A stretch of 64,000 bases of DNA from Octopus sinensis. Its lineage: Eukaryota. The DNA lies in the NCBI RefSeq assembly GCF_006345805.1, contig NC_043017.1, positions 21,700,001-21,764,000 of the forward strand, written 5' to 3'. Below the pieces are notes generated by a model. That model worked only from the letters and a program-made list of their open reading frames with translations. It was not told the origin of the DNA and did no database searches. The translations under genes were made by a program, and so were the position numbers. This document shows, piece by piece, positions 2,135 to 64,000 of the stretch (positions are counted from its first letter, which is position 1; every line of letters begins with the position of its first letter).

Positions 2135-2616
2135 GTACATACATATATACATACATAGATGCATGCAGAAAACTATCTTTCCTCCTATTTACACACACAC
2201 AACATACACACACATGTACCCTAGTAGTTGTGTGTGGATGTTTGTGTGTAAATGTGCATATAGATGCCTGCATATGCAATTTTCTTTTCACCTGCATTGC
2301 AATGTATGCACACATGTGCTGATAAGTAAACCCTAGTTCTATACACACACACACACACACATACGCGCATATCTACCTATCTTTCTATCTGTCTGTCTGT
2401 ATCTCTCAAACCTACAAGAGTAAATAAGAGAGACAGAGACAGGTAGAAACAAGGATTTGAATACTATGTAAATATTCTTTTCAAAAACTTTTCATTTAAT
2501 TTTTCCAAAATTTAATTGTTTTCCATTCTTACAGTTGAAAAAGTCTCAATAACTGAAACCAGTAATGAAACCGGTACTCAATGTCTGGAACTCAGAATCT
2601 TGGGGTTAGTATACCT

Positions 2617-2687
2617 GGGCATATGGTGTAGTGGTTAAGAGCACGGGCTACTAACCCCAAGATTCTGAGTTCGAATCTAGGCAATAA

Positions 2688-2765
<78 letters not shown>

Positions 2766-2803
2766 TAATAATAATAATTGATAATGATAATAATAATAAT
2801 AAC

Positions 2804-2834
<31 letters not shown>

Positions 2835-2985
2835 TCGAAAAATACCTTAGGAATGAGAACCCAAGTTCGAAATTTCCCTAAGACACCTGATGAAGGCTGG
2901 GGGGTATATCAGCTGAAATGTTGTGTTAACAACAAACAAGATGAGGACAAATATCTATCAAATGTAAATAATGTAAATAACGTAT
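2617..2985 (+). mobile_element. tRNA(Ser-like)-headed SINE with internal (AAT)n and hammerhead-bearing tail, copy 1
   Basis: A box tggtgtagtgg, anticodon-arm-like gggctactaaccc, B box gagttcgaatc, then (AAT)n, then gacac-CTGATGA-a-ggctg..cagct-GAAA-tg-tt-gtgtt; a homologous copy lies at 44581-44858. Confidence 0.85.
2882..2927 (+). ncRNA. Minimal type-I hammerhead ribozyme motif
   Basis: Stem I gacac/gtgtt, core CTGATGA 2887-2893, stem II ggctg/cagct, GAAA 2915-2918, stem III reduced to a 2-nt TG (ancestral CG inferred). Confidence 0.65.
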
Positions 2986-4444: not shown

Positions 4445-4873
4445 GGCACAGGCATGGCAGTGTGGCAAGAAGCTTGCTTCCCAACCACATGGTTCTGGGT
4501 TCAGTCCCACTGTGTGGCAATATGTGCAACTGTCTTCTGCTATAGCCTCAAGCTAACCAAAGCCCAGTGAGTGGACTTGGTAGGTGGAAACTGAACGAAG
4601 CCTGTCATATATATATGTGTATGTATGTATATTTCTGTGTGTATGTCTATGTGTCCGTGTTTGTCACCCCCCTCCACTGCTTGACAACTGGTGTTGGTGT
4701 GTTTATGCCCCTGTAACTAAGCAGTTCAGCAAAAGAGATTGATAGAATAAGTACTGGTCTTGAAAGAAAAATATAAGTACTGGGGTTGATATATTGGAAG
4801 AACAAAGAAAGAAAATTCTCCAAAGGGGTGCTCCAGCATGGTAACTGTCTAATGACTGAAACAAGTAAAAGAT
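4445..4873 (+). mobile_element. Octopus-type tRNA/CORE-like SINE (family A)
   Basis: Head ggcacaggcatggc..gggttcagtcccactg, internal GT microsatellite, tail ggtgctccagcatgg..tgactgaaacaagtaaaaga; more than 15 homologous copies in the window. Confidence 0.9.
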
Positions 4874-4916
4874 GTATGAATTAGACTTTAACTCGAATGT
4901 ATCTTCACTTGGACAG

Positions 4917-9749: not shown

Positions 9750-9817
9750 TGCGTCGGCCGGGAGTCGAACCCAGATCAACTGCATGGAAGGCAACCATGC
9801 TAACCGTTACACACACC
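9750..9817 (-). pseudogene. tRNA-Gly(TCC) pseudogene / SINE head
   Basis: Minus strand GGTGTGTGTAACGGTTAGCATGGTTGCCTTCCATGCAGTTGATCTGGGTTCGACTCCCGGCCGACGCA matches metazoan tRNA-Gly(TCC) as I recall it. The first ~5 nt of the acceptor stem are replaced by (TA)n; a T6 tract follows 9 nt downstream (9735-9740). Confidence 0.85.
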
Positions 9818-9892
9818 TATATATATATATACATAATATATATAATATGTATATATATATATATATATACATACATATATATATTATATATA

Positions 9893-11630: not shown

Positions 11631-12110
11631 GATAGTATGTTGTCAACTTAATGTGATTGTCCCATGAAAGGGAAGAATGCTACCATTATTTAGCCCTAGG
11701 ACACACCGTTTCCTGTCGAACTTGACACATTTCCTGTGTCTTTATGTTTTCAAAGTGGAGACAAGCATCTCCACCCAGCAAAGCCAGCATCCAGAGACTA
11801 GTTTCAGGGTCATTGCTCATCATCAGTCTGGAGTAGCATGGCTTGCTAGCTGTCGATGCCTATCTGCCTCTGAAAACATATATATTTCAAGTGAAATATA
11901 TTCATCGATTTTTTTGAAAATAGAAATAATACATTGTAACATAAGTATACGGTAAATGTGTCAAGTCCAACAGGAAACGGTGTTTCCTAGGGCTAAATAA
12001 CAGTATCATTCTTCCCTTTCATGGGACTGTCATATAAGTTGACAACATACTATCAACTTTATCATGCTGCTACTGCATAAATCTCTCTGAGAGATTTAGA
12101 AATGTATTAT
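11631..12110 (-). mobile_element. Fold-back element with long inverted arms and central hammerhead, copy 1
   Basis: Arms gatagtatgttgtcaactta...ttgacacattt (11631-11732) pair with aaatgtgtcaag...taagttgacaacatactatc (11954-12054); homologous to 60472-60826. Confidence 0.85.
11790..11832 (-). ncRNA. Minimal hammerhead motif (canonical core)
   Basis: Minus strand TCCAGA CTGATGA tgagcaatgaccct GAAA CTAG TC TCTGGA. Confidence 0.65.
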
Positions 12111-12375
12111 TCATATATATATATATAAAATTTATATGGCTGACAGTTTACAATGTTTTACCAAAAAGGAAAACTATTATTGTCACTAAATATGCCAAGG
12201 GTGTTAGACACACCTACATTGCTAGAAATAAGAGCTGAAATGCTCTAATGCTGTAGTCAAAGCACATATTTGCACACTGACAGCAATTATAATCATCCAA
12301 CAACATCATTTGAGAATTCCATACACTGACATCAGATCGGCAATTTTCATATATATATATTAATACTCATAAATA

Positions 12376-12547
12376 GGTGCAGGAGTGGCTGTGTGGTAAG
12401 TAGCTTGCTTACCAGCCACATGATTCCAGGTTCAGTCCCACTGCCTGGCACCTTGGGCAAGTGTCTTCTACTATAGCTTTGGGCCAACCAAATCCTTGTG
12501 AGTGGATTTGGTAGACGGAAACTGAAAGAAGCCCCTCATATATATGA

Positions 12548-12618
<71 letters not shown>

Positions 12619-12803
12619 CTTGTGCATTTGTGTTTGTCGCCCCAACATCGCTTGACAACTGATGGTAGTGTGTTTATGTTCCCGTAATTTAGTGGTTCAG
12701 CAAAAAGAGACCGATATACTAAAAACCATAGCAGAAACACCCAGACCATTCAAGTGAAAGCAGTGCTCCAGCATGGCCTTAGCCACCATGATGGTTAAAA
12801 CAA
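12376..12803 (+). mobile_element. SINE family A
   Basis: Head ggtgcaggagtggctgtgtggtaag, CORE-like ccttgggcaagtg, tail gtgctccagcatggcc. Confidence 0.9.
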
Positions 12804-16015: not shown

Positions 16016-17095
16016 AGCTGGCAGAATTGATAGAAAATTGTAAAATGTGCTGTATATTAATTTTTTCTGGCTCTTTATATTCTGAGCTCAAATCCTACAG
16101 GTGTCTTTCATCCCACAAGGGGCAATAAAATGAGCTATTTTAACTTTTTCTGGCTCTATATTCTGAGCTCAAATCCTGCTGGTGACTTTTAACCCTTTAA
16201 GGGGCAATAAAATGAGCCATATTAATTTTTTCTGGCTCTTTATATTCTGAGCTCAAATTCTGCTGGTATCTTTCATCCCACAAGGGGCAATAAAATGAGC
16301 TATATTAATTTTTTCTGGCTCTTTATATTCTGAGCTCAAATCCTGCTGGTGTCGTTCATCCCTTAAGGGGCAATAAAATGAGCCATATTAATTTTTTCTG
16401 GCTCTTTATATTCTGAGCTCAAATTCTGCTGGTATCTTTCATCCCACAAGGGGCAATAAAATGAGCTATATTAATTTTTTCTGGCTCTTTATATTCTGAG
16501 CTCAAATCCTGCTGGTGTCGTTCATCCCTTAAGGGGCAATAAAATGAGCCATATTAATTTTTTCTGGCTCTTTATATTCTGAGTTCAAATCCTGCTGGTG
16601 TCTTTCATCCCTTAAGGGGCAATAAAATGAGCTATATTAATTTTTTCTGGCTCTATATTCTGAGTTCAAATCCTGCTGGTGTCTTTCATCCCTCAAGGGG
16701 CAATAAAATGAGCTATATTAATTTTTTCTGGCACTATATTCTGAGTTCAAATCCTGCTGGTGTCTTTCATCCCTTAAGGGGCAATAAAATGAGCTATATT
16801 AATTTTTTCTGGCACTATATTCTGAGTTCAAATCCTGCTGGTGTCTTTCATCCCTTAAGGGGCAATAAAATGAGCTATATTAATTTTTTCTGGCACTATA
16901 TTCTAAGTTCAAATCCTGCTGGTGTCTTTCATCCCTTAAGGGGCAATAAAATGAGCTATATTAATTTTTTCTGGCTCTATATTCTGAGTTCAAATCCTGC
17001 TGGTGTCTTTCATCCCTTAAGGGGCAATAAAATGAGCTTGATGTAAATGATTTCCCGTCTAAACTTCTGGCTTTGTGCTTAAATCAGAAACAATT
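16016..17095 (+). repeat. 12-unit 81-83 bp tandem array amplified inside a family B SINE
   Basis: caataaaatgag recurs at 16123, 16205, 16288, 16371, 16454, 16537, 16620, 16701, 16782, 16863, 16944 and 17025; the SINE head agctggcagaat precedes the array and the SINE tail ctggctttgtgcttaaatcagaaacaatt follows it. Confidence 0.95.
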
Positions 17096-29174: not shown

Positions 29175-29942
29175 GCATCTGGTAGTGGGGCTCCGAATCG
29201 GAAGTTCCAGAGCTATGAACAGTGTGGAACCATCTCTTAAAACACTTTGGTGTCTAGGTTTACTCAACCTTGTTCAGTAGCACTTGTCCATGTCCCAGCT
29301 ATGGATAAATTAGTATTTAAGGGCTTGTGTACCTATGTATTTGAACACTGGATCTGGCAGACTCTGCAGGGGAAATTTTCATGTTTCAACAGAGAAGCAG
29401 ATAGCTGCAGCAATGCATTGTAAAGACCAGGGAGTAAAACGACATAACAAAGACATCTTTGTCATCTGCTGCATCTGTCTCCATCCCCTCTCATCTTGTC
29501 CTGGTTTTGCCAATGGATTGATGATGATCATGGATGAGAGAGTGTTATCGATGATGCACAACTCTTCTTCACTTTAAACAAATGGAATCACAATCTTACA
29601 ATCAGGAGTCCAATATACTAACGACTCAGCCAGGTGGCTCCACTTTGAGAGGCTGTGCTTTACAGCTGGATGCCCTTCTTGGTGGGAACCAATTTGATTA
29701 GTTACCTTCTGCAACCAGAGCTAGATTAAGACCCATAGAAGCCCTAAGCACTTAAAAGATGTTGGTGCTCCCTTATATATGAAATTAAAAAATATAAACA
29801 ATAATAAACTAAAAAATAAATTATTTTCAAATTCAAAACAAAACTCACAAAAAGATGGGAAATAATGTTTATTTTTCTATACTTCCATTTTTTATATATT
29901 TGAAGAGTTTTCTCCAAATTCTTTTAATTGGAAAACTTTTAT

Positions 29943-30133
29943 TCTTATATTCTTTTACTGGTTTCAGTCTTTTGACTGCGGCCATGCTGGAGCACCACCT
30001 TAAGTCATACAAATCAACCCAGGACTTATTTTTTGTCAGCCTCCTACTTATTCTATCGGTCTCTTTTGCCAAACTGTTAAGTTACAGGTTGTCAAGCGGT
30101 GGGGGGTGGGGACAAACACAGACACACAAACAT

Positions 30134-30173
<40 letters not shown>

Positions 30174-30328
30174 GATGGACTTCTTTCAGTTTCCATATAC
30201 CAAATCCACTCTCAAGACTTTGGTCAGCCCAAGGTTGCAGTGAAAGACATTTTCTCGAGGTACTACACAGTTTAACTGAACCCAGAACCATGTGGTTGGG
30301 AAGCAAGCTTCTTACCACACAGCCACAC
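29943..30328 (-). mobile_element. SINE family A
   Basis: Reverse complement of the family A head, body and tail. Confidence 0.9.
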
Positions 30329-31154
30329 CTGATCAAATTCTCAAAATTAATCTTACACAACACATCCGCTTCTATAGTTAGTAGCGACAAGATGTTCCAA
30401 ATATCATTTTAGCAAATTTAAAATTATTTCTTTTGTACTATAAACCATCTACCATTTCTGTGATCCCCTATTTCCCTTGGAGCCCTAAGCACATTCATAT
30501 ATTGTTAAATGGTTAACCCAGCACTACCTGCAACAGAGAAAGATATAGTATACTCTACTTATTCCAAACAGCCAAAATAATCAGTAAACATTGTTTAAAC
30601 TCAAGCCATTCATAACAAACTTTGTAATTTCCATATATTTCTATACACAAGTATCTTTTATCCATGCAAAATTGCAATTATAGATCTAGCAAGAAGGTGC
30701 ACATAGCATTATGTAAGTTTACTGTAAGCTTTTATAGACAGAAACCCCAGCATAATTATATATATAGAGAGAGAGATACTGCAACAGTGTTGTCACAAGT
30801 TTTACAAATATTATGTTTCACTGAGTGTCTTTACTGCATGAACTGGTAATCTTAACCAGCAGAGTTTCTCGTGGGTTTGTATTAAGTTATTTAATTAATG
30901 GCGCTTCGTACTAACAACAGATACATAGCGATAGGGAAATGGCTAAAGGAAAGGAAATGTGTATGCACACATGCACACACATACACATGCACAAAATCAC
31001 ACCAAAATCAACATGTTACCAATAGAGAATTGAAGCTGATATGTATGTGTGTGTGCGTGTGTGTGTGTGTGCATGTATGTGTGTGTATACACATGTACAC
31101 ATATACAAGTGTGCATGTGTATGTAAATATATATGTGTGTGTGTGTTTGTGTAC

Positions 31155-37574: not shown

Positions 37575-37739
37575 GGCGCAGGAGTGGCTGTGTGGTAAGG
37601 AGCTTGCTTCCCAACTACATGGTTCCAGGTTCATTCCCACTGCGTGGCACCTTGGGCAATTGTCTTTTACTATAGCCTCGGGTCAACCAAAGCCTTGTGA
37701 GTGGATTTGGTAAACAGAAACTGAAAGAAGCCCGTTGTA

Positions 37740-37783
<44 letters not shown>

Positions 37784-37998
37784 GTGTGTATATGTTTGTG
37801 TGTCTGTGTTTGTCCCCTCAACATCGCTTGAGGTGTGTTTATGTCTCCGTAACTTAGCGGTTTGGCAAAAGAGATCGATAGAATAAGTACTAGGCTTCCG
37901 AAGAATAAGCCCTGGGGTCGATTTGCTCGACTAAAAGGCAGTGCTCCAGCATGGCCACAGCCAAATGACTGAAACAGGTAAAAGAGTAAAAGAGTAAA
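37575..37998 (+). mobile_element. Full-length SINE family A
   Basis: ggcgcaggagtggctgtgtggtaag through ggcagtgctccagcatggccacag..(taaaagag)n. Confidence 0.93.
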
Positions 37999-38019
37999 AA
38001 TATATATATATATATATAT

Positions 38020-38363: not shown

Positions 38364-38730
38364 CAACAACATGGTTCCGGGTTCAGTCCCACTGCATGGC
38401 ACCTTGGGCAAGTGTCTTCTACTATAGCCTCGGGATGACCAAAGCCTTGTGAGTGGATTTGGTAGACGGAAACTGAAAGAAGCCTGTCGTATATATGTAT
38501 ATATATATATGTGTGTGTGAGTTTGTGTGTCTGTGTTTGTCCCCCCAACATTGCTTGGTGGTGTGTTTACGTCCCCGTAACTTAGCGGTTCAGCAAAAGA
38601 GACCGATAGAATAAGTACTAGGCTTACGAAGAATAAGTCCTGGGGCCGATTTCCTCGACTAAAGGTGGTGCACCAGCATGGCCGCAGTCAAATGACTGAA
38701 ACAAGTAAAAGAGTATAAAAATAAAAGAGT
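38364..38730 (+). mobile_element. SINE family A (5'-truncated)
   Basis: acatggttccgggttcagtcccactg through tgactgaaacaagtaaaagag. Confidence 0.92.
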
Positions 38731-38874
38731 AATATATATATGAAATTAATATAGAGAGCTGTGTGCAATGTAATACCCAAAAGGAAAACTACAATTGTCA
38801 CTAAATGTGAATAAGGGTGTCAGAACACCTACAATGCTAGAAATAAGAGCTAAAAATGCTCTAATACTGTAGTT

Positions 38875-40624: not shown

Positions 40625-40714
40625 GCTAACAGCCATATCACGTTTAAAGCCGGCCCTCATTTGATCACCAGAGTTAAGCAACGTCAAGCCTTGTAAGCAC
40701 TTAGATTGGTGACT
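40625..40714 (+). pseudogene. 5S rRNA-derived sequence (3'-truncated)
   Basis: gctaacagccatatcacgtttaaagc..tgatcaccagagttaagcaacgtc..acttagattggtgac aligns with 5S rRNA nt ~1-90, including box A (AGTTAAGC) and a box C-like segment. Confidence 0.85.
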
Positions 40715-41099
40715 ACTTGTTTCAGTCATTACACAGTGGCCATGCTGGAGCACCACCTTTTAGTCGAGCAAATTGACACCAGGATTTATTCTTTGTAAGC
40801 CTTGTACTTATTCTATCGGTCTCTTTTGCCGAACCACTAAGTTACAGGGACGTAAACACACCAGCATCGGTTGTCAAGCGATGTTGGGGGGACAAACACA
40901 GACACACAAACATATACACACACATATATATATATACATATATATGATGGGCTTCTTTCAGTTTCTGCCAACCATATCCACTCACAAGGCTTTGGTCGGC
41001 CCGAGGCTATAGTAGAAGACACTTGCCCAAGGTGCCATGCAGTGGGACTGAACCCGGAACCATGTGGTTCCTAAGCAAGAAAATTACCACACAGCCACT
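40715..41099 (-). mobile_element. Full-length SINE family A
   Basis: Reverse complement of the family A consensus. Confidence 0.92.
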
Positions 41100-44110: not shown

Positions 44111-44580
44111 GTATAAAAAGATTAAGGGCTGCAACACTCCGGTGCTCCAGATGGCTTTAATAATCAACAGATGACAGAATGCAGAATTCGACTAATGAAA
44201 ATCTTTGCTGTGACCTCCCACTTTTGGTTAATGCTGTGGTGGATGCTCCCAGGCAAGAAGTGAGCTGGTCCACTACTAATAAACAGTGGACTGATACAAT
44301 CAGTAAGGGCAGTCGGCGAAGGTACACCGTTCGGACCAGTCCCATAGAGATGACATAATACATTGGCATCATGGGATATATCAGTGGTGACAAAGGTTCG
44401 GACAATATCGCCATTGGGACATATCAGTTAACAAGGTAGGAAGGTGACAGCTGAAACAACTTGCTGGATAGAGACTGAAATACCCAGAGTAACTTTCCTG
44501 CAAAGTCATCACCTTGGAATGATCCATGAGTTGAAGTCTTGGTGTCTTTTGAAACTGTTCGGGACTATGCCATATGCCCA

Positions 44581-44858
44581 GGGACATATGGCATAGTGGT
44601 TAAGAGTGCGGACTACTAACCCCAAGATTCCGAGTTCGATTCCAGGTAGTGACCTGAATAATAATAATGATGATAATAATAATAATAATAGTAATAATGA
44701 TAATAATAACAACAACATCGCCCCAAGACACCTGATGAAGGCTGGAATGTATATCAGATGAAACATTGGGTTAACAACAAACAAGATGAAGACAAATATC
44801 TGTCAAATGAAAATAATGTAAATATGGTACATAATTCCTCATTTCTTAAATATAGAAC
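44581..44858 (+). mobile_element. tRNA(Ser-like)-headed SINE with (AAT)n and hammerhead tail, copy 2
   Basis: Homologous to 2617-2985; HHR at 44727-44772 reads gacac CTGATGA a ggctg..cagat GAAA ca tt gggtt. Confidence 0.85.
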
Positions 44859-55572: not shown

Positions 55573-57063
55573 GTGGTATCGACTGTGACAGAGTCACCAA
55601 CTAATTTGCAAGACAAAAACCTCTCAAGCTGGAGGTGGGAGTCGTATTAAGTGTGGTGGCTTTGTGTCAGCTGTGGAAACCTTGCCAAAACAGACATAGA
55701 AACTGGTGCAACCCTCTAAATTGTCTCGTTGAAATGTGCAGCAATGATGGTGTGTGTGCGTGTATTTCTCCCTCTCTCCTTGTCTTGACATTGGATGATT
55801 GTCAGAAAAGAGTGTCATCACCATACAAGCAAAGTCCCTCGTTTCCAGTCTTCTGCGAAAAACTTATCAGGCCATGGGGAAACACAGGCTTTGCTACAAG
55901 ATCAGCAATTCCAGGAGAAGTGGGTAAGTCGATTACATCGACCCCAGTCCTCAACTGATACTTTTTTTATCAACCCTGAAAGGATGAAAGGTAAAGTTGA
56001 CCTTGGCTGTGTTTGAACACAGAACATAAAGATTGAAGAAAGCATTTCGCCCAATGTGCTAACGATTCGGCCAGCTTGCCACCCCAAGACCATGGAGAAA
56101 CATTACCTTGATTGAAAATAGGGCATGGGTTGGTCACATGAAGGGCATCCAGCCATGCAAAATCTACTTTGATGATTTCTGAATCACCTATGCAAAATCT
56201 ACTTTGATGACTTCTGAATCACCCATGCAAACATAGAGAAGTGTATGTTAAATCAACGATAACGAAGAAGATGATGAGGAGGAATGCATAATTTTTGGAG
56301 GGTACATTTAGTTGTTATTTCAAGCAGGCTGATTAACAGTATAAGGGCTCCATCTTGACAGAAGAGGCAAGAAGTGAGTGAAGCCATCATAAATACATAT
56401 GTGAAAATTCAATGTGTGGAGACAAGTGAGTCAGGGATTGTTTACAAGTGTCAACACAATGTGGCAAAGAGAAGAGAAGGAAGGAACTGTCTGATGGAGA
56501 TGACAGCTGAGTCTCCTTAAAAAGTGGTTCCACTGAAATAACATGGGAACAATATTGTAATCTGGTCTCTCCTTGACAATTCCAAACAGAGAGAGAAAGA
56601 GAAGATGAGAGGGAAACACAGACAGATAACAAACACACACACACACCGATGGAATATATATATATATATATTATATCATATTATATATTTTATATGCATA
56701 TATAATATATGAATTATATATTATACTTATGTATATAATATATATATGTGTGTGTCTATATATATATTATGTAATAAATATACAGAGAAATATTATATGC
56801 AATATATATATATATATATATATATTTCTTATTTGTATTATTTCATATATACATATAAGTAATATATATATATATATATATGAAAATGATGAGAGGAAAG
56901 TGTAAATAAAGAATTTATTAAGTTTGGAGTTTGGTGATGAAATATATAAAACAATAAAACTGAATAACTTTAACCATACACATGTCCCCATTTATATATA
57001 CATATAAATACATATATATATATACTTACATATACATGGTTATACACATGCTCACACACACTA

Positions 57064-60420: not shown

Positions 60421-60468
<48 letters not shown>

Positions 60469-60471
60469 AGT

Positions 60472-60826
60472 ATTACATTTCTAAATATCTCAGGGAGATA
60501 TAAACAGCAGTGGTATGATAGAGTCAACTTAATGTGACAGTCCCATAAAGGGAATCAAACTACTGCTATTTAACCCTAGGAAGCATTAATGCTTCCTGTC
60601 AGTCTTGACACATTTCCTGTGTCCTTATGTTTACAAGGCCTAGACAAGCATCTCCAACTACCAGGCCATGCTACTCCAGACTGATGACAAGCAAGACTCA
60701 GAAACTAGTCTCTGGATGTAGGCTTAGCTGGGTGGGGGTGCTTGTCTCCCCCTTGTAAACATAAGGACACAGGAAATGTGTCAAGGCTGACAGGAAGCGT
60801 TGATGCTTCCTAGGGCTAAATAGCAT
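60472..60826 (+). mobile_element. Fold-back element with central hammerhead, copy 2
   Basis: Arms 60565-60667 / 60721-60825; 60675-60716 reads TCCAGA CTGATGA caagcaagactca GAAA CTAG TC TCTGGA. Confidence 0.85.
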
Positions 60827-61145
60827 TATGCACCACTTCCTTCATATCTTCATCTGTAGGCAATCGACGAACTTGTAAACCATTTTTGAGCAGTTTAAAG
60901 ATATGATAGTTGGAAGGGGTAGGATCTGGGCTGTAGGTAGGGTTTACCAGCACCTCAAAACCCAATTGGTCAATAGTTTCAATGGTCTGGATGACCGTAT
61001 GGGGCGTGCAATGTTATGCAACAACAAAACTTTCTTTGACAATAGGCTTCAGCATTTGGTGTAAATTGCTAGCTTCAGTTTGTTTGCCAGCAAAACACTA
61101 TATCTTTCACTGTTAAGCATAGACCCCTTTTCCAGAGAAATCAGA
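60826..61145 (-). pseudogene. Mariner transposase fragment
   Basis: LISLEKGSMLNSERYSVLL..KKVLLLHNIARP / PHTVIQTIETIDQLGFEVLVNPTYSPDPTPSNYHIFKLLKNGLQVRRLPTDEDMKEVVH: degenerate HDNARPH and YSPDLAPSDY motifs, with a stop and a frameshift. Confidence 0.9.
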
Positions 61146-63643: not shown

Positions 63644-64000
63644 TATTCTTTTACTCTTTTACTTGTTTCAGTCATTTGACTGCGGCCATGCTGGAGCACC
63701 ACCTTTAGTCGAGCAAATCGACCCCGGGACTTATTCTTTGTAAGCCCAGTACTTGTTCTCTCGGTCTCTTTTGCCAAACCACTAAGTGACGGGGATGTAA
63801 ACACACCAGCATCGGTTGTCAAGCAATGCTAGTGGGACAGACACAGAGACACACAAACACACACACACACACATACATATATACATATATACGACAGGCT
63901 TCTTTCAGTTTCCGTCTACCAAATCCACTCACAAGGTTTTGGTCAGCCTGAGGCTATAGTAGAAGATACTTGCCCAGGGTTTCACGCAGTGGGATTGAAC
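63644..64000 (-). mobile_element. SINE family A (runs off the window)
   Basis: Reverse complement of the family A tail and body. Confidence 0.92.

Follow-up and report, generated by a model that had tools for sequence, protein, structure and literature searches.

A tRNA-headed octopus repeat with a hammerhead tail and end structures resembling those of Penelope-like elements

A 64,000-nucleotide stretch of the Octopus sinensis genome (RefSeq assembly GCF_006345805.1, contig NC_043017.1, positions 21,700,001 to 21,764,000, forward strand; hereafter the window) carries two copies of a short repeat in which a tRNA-like head is joined through an (AAT)n linker to a tail that includes a minimal type I hammerhead ribozyme motif. 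This shared architecture, first proposed in a sequence-only reading, is present at 2617-2984 and at 44581-44858. Both copies lie on the plus strand, 42 kb apart, and are 278-368 nt in length. From the structure of its two ends and the company its hammerhead motif keeps elsewhere, we consider it likely that this tRNA-headed repeat with a putative Pol III (RNA polymerase III) type promoter is a non-autonomous Penelope-like element (PLE), borrowing the reverse transcriptase (RT) and endonuclease of a PLE.

The two window copies

The order of parts is the same in both copies: head, (AAT)n, a common 7-nt junction and then the tail, with an (AAT)n tract of about 139 nt in copy 1 and about 57 nt in copy 2. 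Identity between the copies is 84.8% over 79 nt of the head and 87.7% over 114 nt of the tail, and 38 nt that follow the junction in copy 1 (2838-2875) are absent from copy 2. Within the window, heads and tails match only the partner copy, besides an inverted arm (see below) and one weak AT-rich match at 56814-56856 (E 0.008), and no solo head or solo tail was found in the 64 kb other than that weak match. Coordinates are collected in Table 1.

The A and B boxes claimed for the heads were located in both copies. The parentage proposed with them, tRNA-Ser(GCT), was not borne out, since the anticodon position reads ACT and the head is without a long variable arm, a feature of serine tRNAs. ARAGORN called copy 1 only at the relaxed 85% threshold, as Ser with anticodon ACT, and never called copy 2 as a tRNA. 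The Rfam tRNA and hammerhead models gave no match on either decayed copy, and the fetched loci held no eukaryotic tRNA to serve as a reference. A separate tRNA-Gly(TCC)-like sequence lies at 9751-9821 on the minus strand, adjoining a (TA)n-rich tract, and may be a gene, a pseudogene or the head of a simple short interspersed element (SINE).

Table 1. Parts of the two copies of the element in the window
Feature	Position	Strand	Remarks
Copy 1, inverted copy of part of its head (2649-2672)	2588..2611	-	24/24; may reach about 2581
Copy 1, tRNA-like head	2617..2691	+	A box 2624-2634, B box 2667-2677
Copy 1, (AAT)n linker	2692..2830	+	
Copy 1, tail resembling a pseudo-long terminal repeat (pLTR), short 3' class	2831..2984	+	end is 62 nt past the predicted cut site
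Copy 1, predicted minimal type I hammerhead	2882..2927	+	predicted cut after 2922
Copy 1, hammerhead parts			stem I 2882-2886/2923-2927, core 2887-2893, stem II 2895-2900/2909-2914, GAAA 2915-2918
Copy 2, fold-back inverted duplicate of first bases	44564..44579	-	44564-44576 is the reverse complement of 44585-44597, 13/13
Copy 2, tRNA-like head	44581..44656	+	A box 44589-44599, B box 44632-44642
Copy 2, (AAT)n linker	44657..44713	+	
Copy 2, pLTR-like tail, long 3' class	44714..44858	+	has the optional extension of about 30 nt; without the 38 nt of copy 1
Copy 2, decayed minimal hammerhead	44727..44772	+	core 44732-44738, GAAA 44760-44763, predicted cut after 44767

Other repeats are found in the window. 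A dispersed family of about 400 bp is far more frequent, and more diverged, than the hammerhead element (4449-4889, 12373-12722, 29936-30331, 37575-38015, 38364-38741, 40714-41099, 63644-64000 and others) and provides a natural control SINE. A tandem array repeating about every 83 bp occupies 16041-17038.

The family, its ends and its relatives

Contigs of four public runs were aligned onto copy 2 at 80% likeness, with the AAT linker skipped; series of four values below refer to these runs. The numbers of contigs placed were 11,324, 2,715, 2,224 and 1,457. The unique 5' flank was spanned by one contig without differences in two runs, at depths of 13.6 and 3.2, and in two runs the summed depth of the element was 10^4-10^5 times that of the unique flank, a value to be taken as a rough guide and not as a copy number. 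SINEBase describes SINEs as short (<1 kb), interspersed and non-tandem, with at least 100 copies, at least 60% identity to a tRNA over 60 nt, Pol III transcription, a 3' tail of simple repeats and reverse transcription by a partner LINE (long interspersed element). The element is short, non-tandem and interspersed among diverse flanks, and by contig counts and depth it is a high-copy family of more than 100 copies; its ends are fixed unique sequence, and its simple repeat is internal. A profile built on the translated tail yielded 42 matches, all of them short spurious open reading frames (ORFs) of 34-179 aa from other copies, and Octopus bimaculoides was the only named source among the 10 that were looked up. 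No match to an element-specific pattern was obtained in the metagenome or viral collections.

The 3' ends of the family fall at two sites, approximately 62 and 93 nt past the predicted cut site, without poly(A). Among the 24 of 623 rows listed, loose ends were found at 44820/44824 in 309, 72, 16 and 31 contigs and at 44858 in 216, 65, 19 and 28, so that the short and long classes are similar in number, and copies 1 and 2 of the window represent one class each. Depth drops about 80- to 600-fold past 44860. Among the spurious translations of other copies, six extend to the long end, and all six diverge immediately beyond it. The 3' flanks are AT-rich with little common sequence (agreement 0.41-0.51), although the loose letters after 44858 begin with a weak TATT-like consensus, possibly a short repeat tail. 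An optional 3' tail of 30-40 bp is a feature of PLEs that is not observed in non-LTR target-primed reverse transcription (PMC8557442), and the two end classes conform to it. The PLE tail is reported to lie between two internal RT start sites, 111-118 nt into an ORF that has its hammerhead cut at +26, and PLE cutting favours ATT (PMC11167929). Target duplications were limited to 5-7 nt in six of the units checked, both window copies included.

Another PLE feature is an adjacent inverted, 5'-truncated copy (PMC8557442). Inverted arms at the 5' end, overlooked in the sequence-only reading, are a PLE signature, and both window copies have one. The exact reverse-complement match is 24 nt long in copy 1 and 13 nt in copy 2, compared with control maxima of 11 and 12 nt, respectively, in 6288 stretches. 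The arm at 2588-2611 carries copy 1's own base at the sole position there where copy 2 differs, and was therefore templated by copy 1 or its source, or homogenised later. In the contigs, the strand changes in 10 of the 15 joints listed (16 in total), each with one side at 44564-44616; the partner is the head in three and the inverted tail (44772-44815) in seven. An inverted self-piece within 5 nt of the head is present in four of six head-bearing elements, namely the window copies and the relatives described below taken together. Inversion breakpoints also cluster immediately downstream of the cut site, but this was set aside as evidence, as the mismatches of copy 2 at 44758-44769 may halt alignments there. 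The 5' boundary is sharp at the GGG of the head, with loose contig ends at 44585 in 120, 25 and 15 contigs.

The hammerhead of copy 1 is predicted to fold as a minimal type I ribozyme (z -1.5; the energy alone is not significant). In stem III, copy 1 has TG where copy 2 has CA; from this an ancestral CG within the palindrome AACGTT, decayed at CpG, had been proposed, and the contigs of the four runs confirm it. At position 44765 G is the majority letter (64, 79, 82 and 87% of summed depth), and at 44764 T is a minority (9, 6, 5 and 11%); therefore the family state is CG. Copy 2 holds family-minority letters at 44758, 44765 and 44769, and the majority letters C, G and T at these positions rebuild the ribozyme. 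A minimal type I hammerhead with a palindromic stem III near the 3' end, as is typical of PLEs, is thus predicted for the family. The window contains a second hammerhead-motif repeat (11631-12137 and 60442-60829), which is shaped like a miniature inverted-repeat transposable element (MITE) with the ribozyme in its loop. The core of this repeat (11788-11838 on the minus strand, 60669-60718 on the plus strand) lies between long inverted arms and has the stem III palindrome ACTAGT; no tRNA-like head was seen in it.

A wider motif modelled on the hammerhead of the element matched at least 127 metagenome stretches and two stretches of GTDB genomes, with no match in the viral collection. Matches to PLE ORFs by tblastn were found in 46 of 127 motif loci (125 metagenome and two GTDB, some overlapping), six of the 46 being query loci that match by construction. 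Many of the PLE ORF matches end about 70-90 nt upstream of the hammerhead motif on the same strand, so that in animals other than octopus, too, the motif adjoins PLE frames. RVT_1 was identified in eight of the 19 ORFs scanned, one of which (at locus L011) has GIY-YIG in addition. The family of this RT and GIY-YIG locus ends 53-60 and 89-98 nt after the cut, resembling the octopus element, and end clusters lie about 30-35 nt apart in all three motif families with at least five members. Stems I and II of the motif covary: the free positions of stem I pair in 32, 24, 19 and 10 of 36 motif families (shuffled means 15.5, 10.5, 10.8 and 10.2) and those of stem II in 29, 20 and 19 (shuffled means 13.7, 9.6 and 9.3). 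An inverted self-copy lies upstream of 22 of 84 matches versus 15 of 212 cross-family controls. This context shows that the tail is of PLE type, and does not indicate its source element. At four loci (L030, L066, L075 and L037) RT elements carrying this hammerhead motif lie head to tail, about 3.9-4.1 kb apart, with an additional ORF upstream of the 835-880 aa RT frame; in L030 this ORF encodes 373 aa with no Pfam match.

Both GTDB matches to the motif lie in animal-like DNA within two assemblies, G001 and G002. Contig C16 of G002 (L143-L169) is chimeric, its first ~255 kb having a GC content of about 0.64 and the following ~280 kb being animal-like with a GC content of about 0.37; the latter part has fragments of PLEs and of long interspersed elements (LINEs), and G001 has animal-like contigs too. 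Four related elements were recognised (C16:334018 on the plus strand, C16:348071 on the minus strand, C52 and C340), each with a homologous tRNA-like start and a hammerhead tail. Their middles are 100-170 nt long and contain no microsatellite. The ribozyme and the motif after it are common to their tails, the terminal motif is common to most, and the heads share A- and B-box residues. In the tail, copy 2 is 85% identical to L127 over 40 nt. Two of the four relatives have a classic inverted truncated copy, including a long tail, that abuts the head, and a 12 bp target duplication flanks one such inverted and direct unit. Across the head-bearing elements the invariant head columns are mainly A- and B-box residues, and a run of four T (T4) on the sense strand is absent from all six; T4 occurs within 60 nt after the cut in 28 of 36 motif families.

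The tail of the C52 type is repeated two to three times head to tail in the spurious ORFs P0016, P0019, P0024, P0026, P0035, P0041 and P0042, resembling a pLTR-like partial tandem. In G001, at C32 8307-8763 and C214 47578-47954 (L175-L193), units of 34-72 bp that all contain a hammerhead-like core form tandem arrays, which are retrozyme- or satellite-like.

Probable mobilisation by a Penelope-like element and the alternatives

The tail had been read as a PLE-type pLTR and its mobilisation ascribed to a PLE. The inverted 5' pieces and the two fixed 3' ends without poly(A) support both ideas, as do the hammerhead motif beside PLE ORFs and the related tRNA-headed elements with a classic inverted copy. 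This support is indirect, because no autonomous PLE with exactly this tail was found. The element is SINE-like in build and appears PLE-like in movement, and departs from classical SINEs in its tail. More tentatively, we think it rather probable that PLEs, and not LINEs, mobilise an entire group of SINEs found in octopus and its relatives. These would be Pol III-driven, pLTR-tailed parasites, this family alone having roughly 10^4-10^5 copies, in several lineages that vary in their heads and middles and keep one PLE recognition end.

Under PLE mobilisation, Pol III would start at the GGG of the head and, as no T4 run is present in the unit, would continue through it into flanking DNA. A PLE protein would bind the pLTR-like tail in trans and nick AT-rich DNA. 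Reverse transcription would then be primed internally, at either of two positions that lie about 62 and 93 nt beyond the hammerhead cut, and neither poly(A) nor a repeat tail would be needed. At the 5' end the enzyme may fold back or restart by second priming, leaving an inverted piece. The hammerhead would cut only as a dimer, through the AACGTT stem III; because cleavage would detach the head and promoter from the region where priming occurs, the template is likely to be uncut RNA, with the ribozyme probably retained as part of the fold that is recognised. With a promoter of its own inside the unit, the element would not depend on the tandem arrangement through which PLEs are expressed. As to its origin, the family may have begun with the insertion of a pLTR in the (AAT)n tract of a simple repeat derived from a tRNA.

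Several results weigh against mobilisation by a PLE. The search for an autonomous partner sharing the tail yielded none, the hammerhead motif being all that PLE-adjacent loci have in common with it. No RT domain was present in the 16 scanned of the 42 tail-profile matches, a search among longer proteins with the tail translation gave no match, and the PLE fragments on G002:C16, G001:C139 and G001:C120 have ends that differ from this tail. A tail-like N-terminus was found in none of 28 PLE proteins (all by pattern scan, seven read whole). The hammerhead fold was not obtained for copy 2, and neither window copy has a clear target duplication (6 and 5 nt). Their arms are short fold-backs of the head rather than the classic truncated copy containing the 3' end, and each joint in the contigs is backed by one or two contigs at 80% likeness and is prone to repeat artefacts. 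The peak depth ratio of head to tail was 0.33-0.72, a figure that does not gauge head-tail linkage since the AAT was skipped. The T4 test is weak as well: 30-64% of shuffles have no T4, the six elements are related, and the end of one of them was placed by us just before a T run.

The possibility that the tail is the start of a PLE ORF was considered and is not supported, despite one frame that is open through both tails, because its matches are short spurious ORFs with no longer protein among them and the 28 PLE proteins are without tail-like motifs. When six PLE ORFs were compared with the window by tblastn, no fragment of a PLE was detected there. Scanning G001 and G002 for the terminal motif returned one true match and five unrelated ones.

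It is unlikely, in our view, that a PLE moves the element with the head as a mere passenger, transcription coming from Pol II read-through or from a pLTR promoter. Decayed heads unmatched by the Rfam tRNA model would fit such a passenger, as would the existence of headless, tandem or inverted relatives, and the role of Pol III is predicted from sequence, contigs being unable to reveal start sites. However, the 5' boundary is sharp at the head GGG, the invariant head columns are mostly those of the A and B boxes, and all six elements have no sense-strand T4.

An ordinary LINE-mobilised SINE that once captured a piece of pLTR, its 3' end being recognised by the LINE, is improbable. The absence of poly(A) or a clear tandem tail, the two alternative fixed 3' ends and the duplicated inverted 5' copies all speak against it, even though SINEs are LINE-dependent by definition (PMC3531059), LINEs are abundant in octopus (PMC13282606) and the TATT-like consensus after 44858 could be a short repeat tail. 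Furthermore, within the window and the fetched animal-like DNA combined, the last 40 nt match only another hammerhead element, and no LINE match to the 3' end was found in the limited DNA compared.

We regard as very improbable that solo pLTRs repeatedly enter the (AAT)n of a simple tRNA SINE, giving chimeras that are not mobile as a unit: PLEs do favour microsatellites (PMC8557442) and ATT cuts (PMC11167929), linkage across the AAT was not readable in the contig survey and such an insertion may well describe the first formation of the family, but both window copies are joined by the same 7-nt junction with no solo parts in 64 kb, seven joints set the inverted tail directly against the head start, and the relatives join head and tail without a microsatellite.

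Comparison with known systems

A SINE with a PLE partner had been called unusual. The partnership is indirectly supported, yet the claim needs tempering, as the coupling of a SINE-like Pol III unit with a hammerhead is already known from the schistosome element SMalpha. SMalpha and Sjalpha resemble the octopus element in being SINE-like, apparently Pol III-transcribed units with a type I hammerhead (PMC6765202, PMC8490949). However, SMalpha frequently occurs in tandem, with a ribozyme that releases copies from multimers, and its single copies lose the promoter (PMC6765202), whereas the octopus element has dispersed copies, a putative promoter at the 5' end, a minimal PLE-type hammerhead and ends with PLE signatures. 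An enzyme that mobilises SMalpha is not mentioned in the available portions of PMC6765202 and PMC8490949.

Non-autonomous PLEs and solo pLTRs, such as MRC1 of Chlamydomonas and the short Penelope elements of heliconiines, are likewise short and non-coding, with a pLTR-like 3' part and PLE-type ends (PMC8557442, PMC6685494). They differ in that the available portions of these two papers mention no tRNA-derived head; autonomous partners are known for Chlamys. The animal non-LTR retrozymes, proposed to be PLE derivatives, share the type I hammerhead (bioRxiv 10.64898/2026.07.22.740005; PMC7761336). They are defined as tandem repeats that make circular RNA, whereas the octopus element occurs as dispersed monomers that have a head of Pol III type; the window copies are single, and one go-back joint was found among the 15 listed joints. 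The words 'tRNA' and 'polymerase III' are absent from the text of the retrozyme preprint (bioRxiv 10.64898/2026.07.22.740005). Helenus, Ajax and Cassandra also combine a promoter derived from a small RNA with mobilisation by something other than a LINE (PMC10886601, PMC12859917), but the machinery is that of LTR retrotransposons, and 'Penelope' does not appear in the available text of PMC10886601. No description of a tRNA-headed, PLE-mobilised SINE or of an octopus hammerhead SINE was found in the literature searched, which covered few subscription journals.

Ohshima and Okada reportedly described tRNA-derived SINEs of octopus in 1994, under the names OK and OR1. Those SINEs are similar to the present family in being tRNA-derived, abundant and from octopus. 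OR2, of the same set, is named in PMC4758252. The family may already carry a name, with its link to hammerheads and PLEs having gone unnoticed. Among recently active octopus SINE families, 893 of 900 are unclassified (PMC13282606, Table 1), and PLE mobilisation, if true, would account for some of the SINEs in octopus genomes that lack a classification. The element would also offer a natural minimal substrate of about 150 nt for studying PLE recognition, action in trans and the purpose of the hammerhead, given that for the one PLE assayed in vitro the template was predominantly uncut RNA (PMC11167929). A large PLE-driven family would break the rule of SINEs as parasites of LINEs, and would represent a third SINE-style partnership, beside that of SINEs with LINEs and the LTR-type one of Helenus, Ajax and Cassandra.
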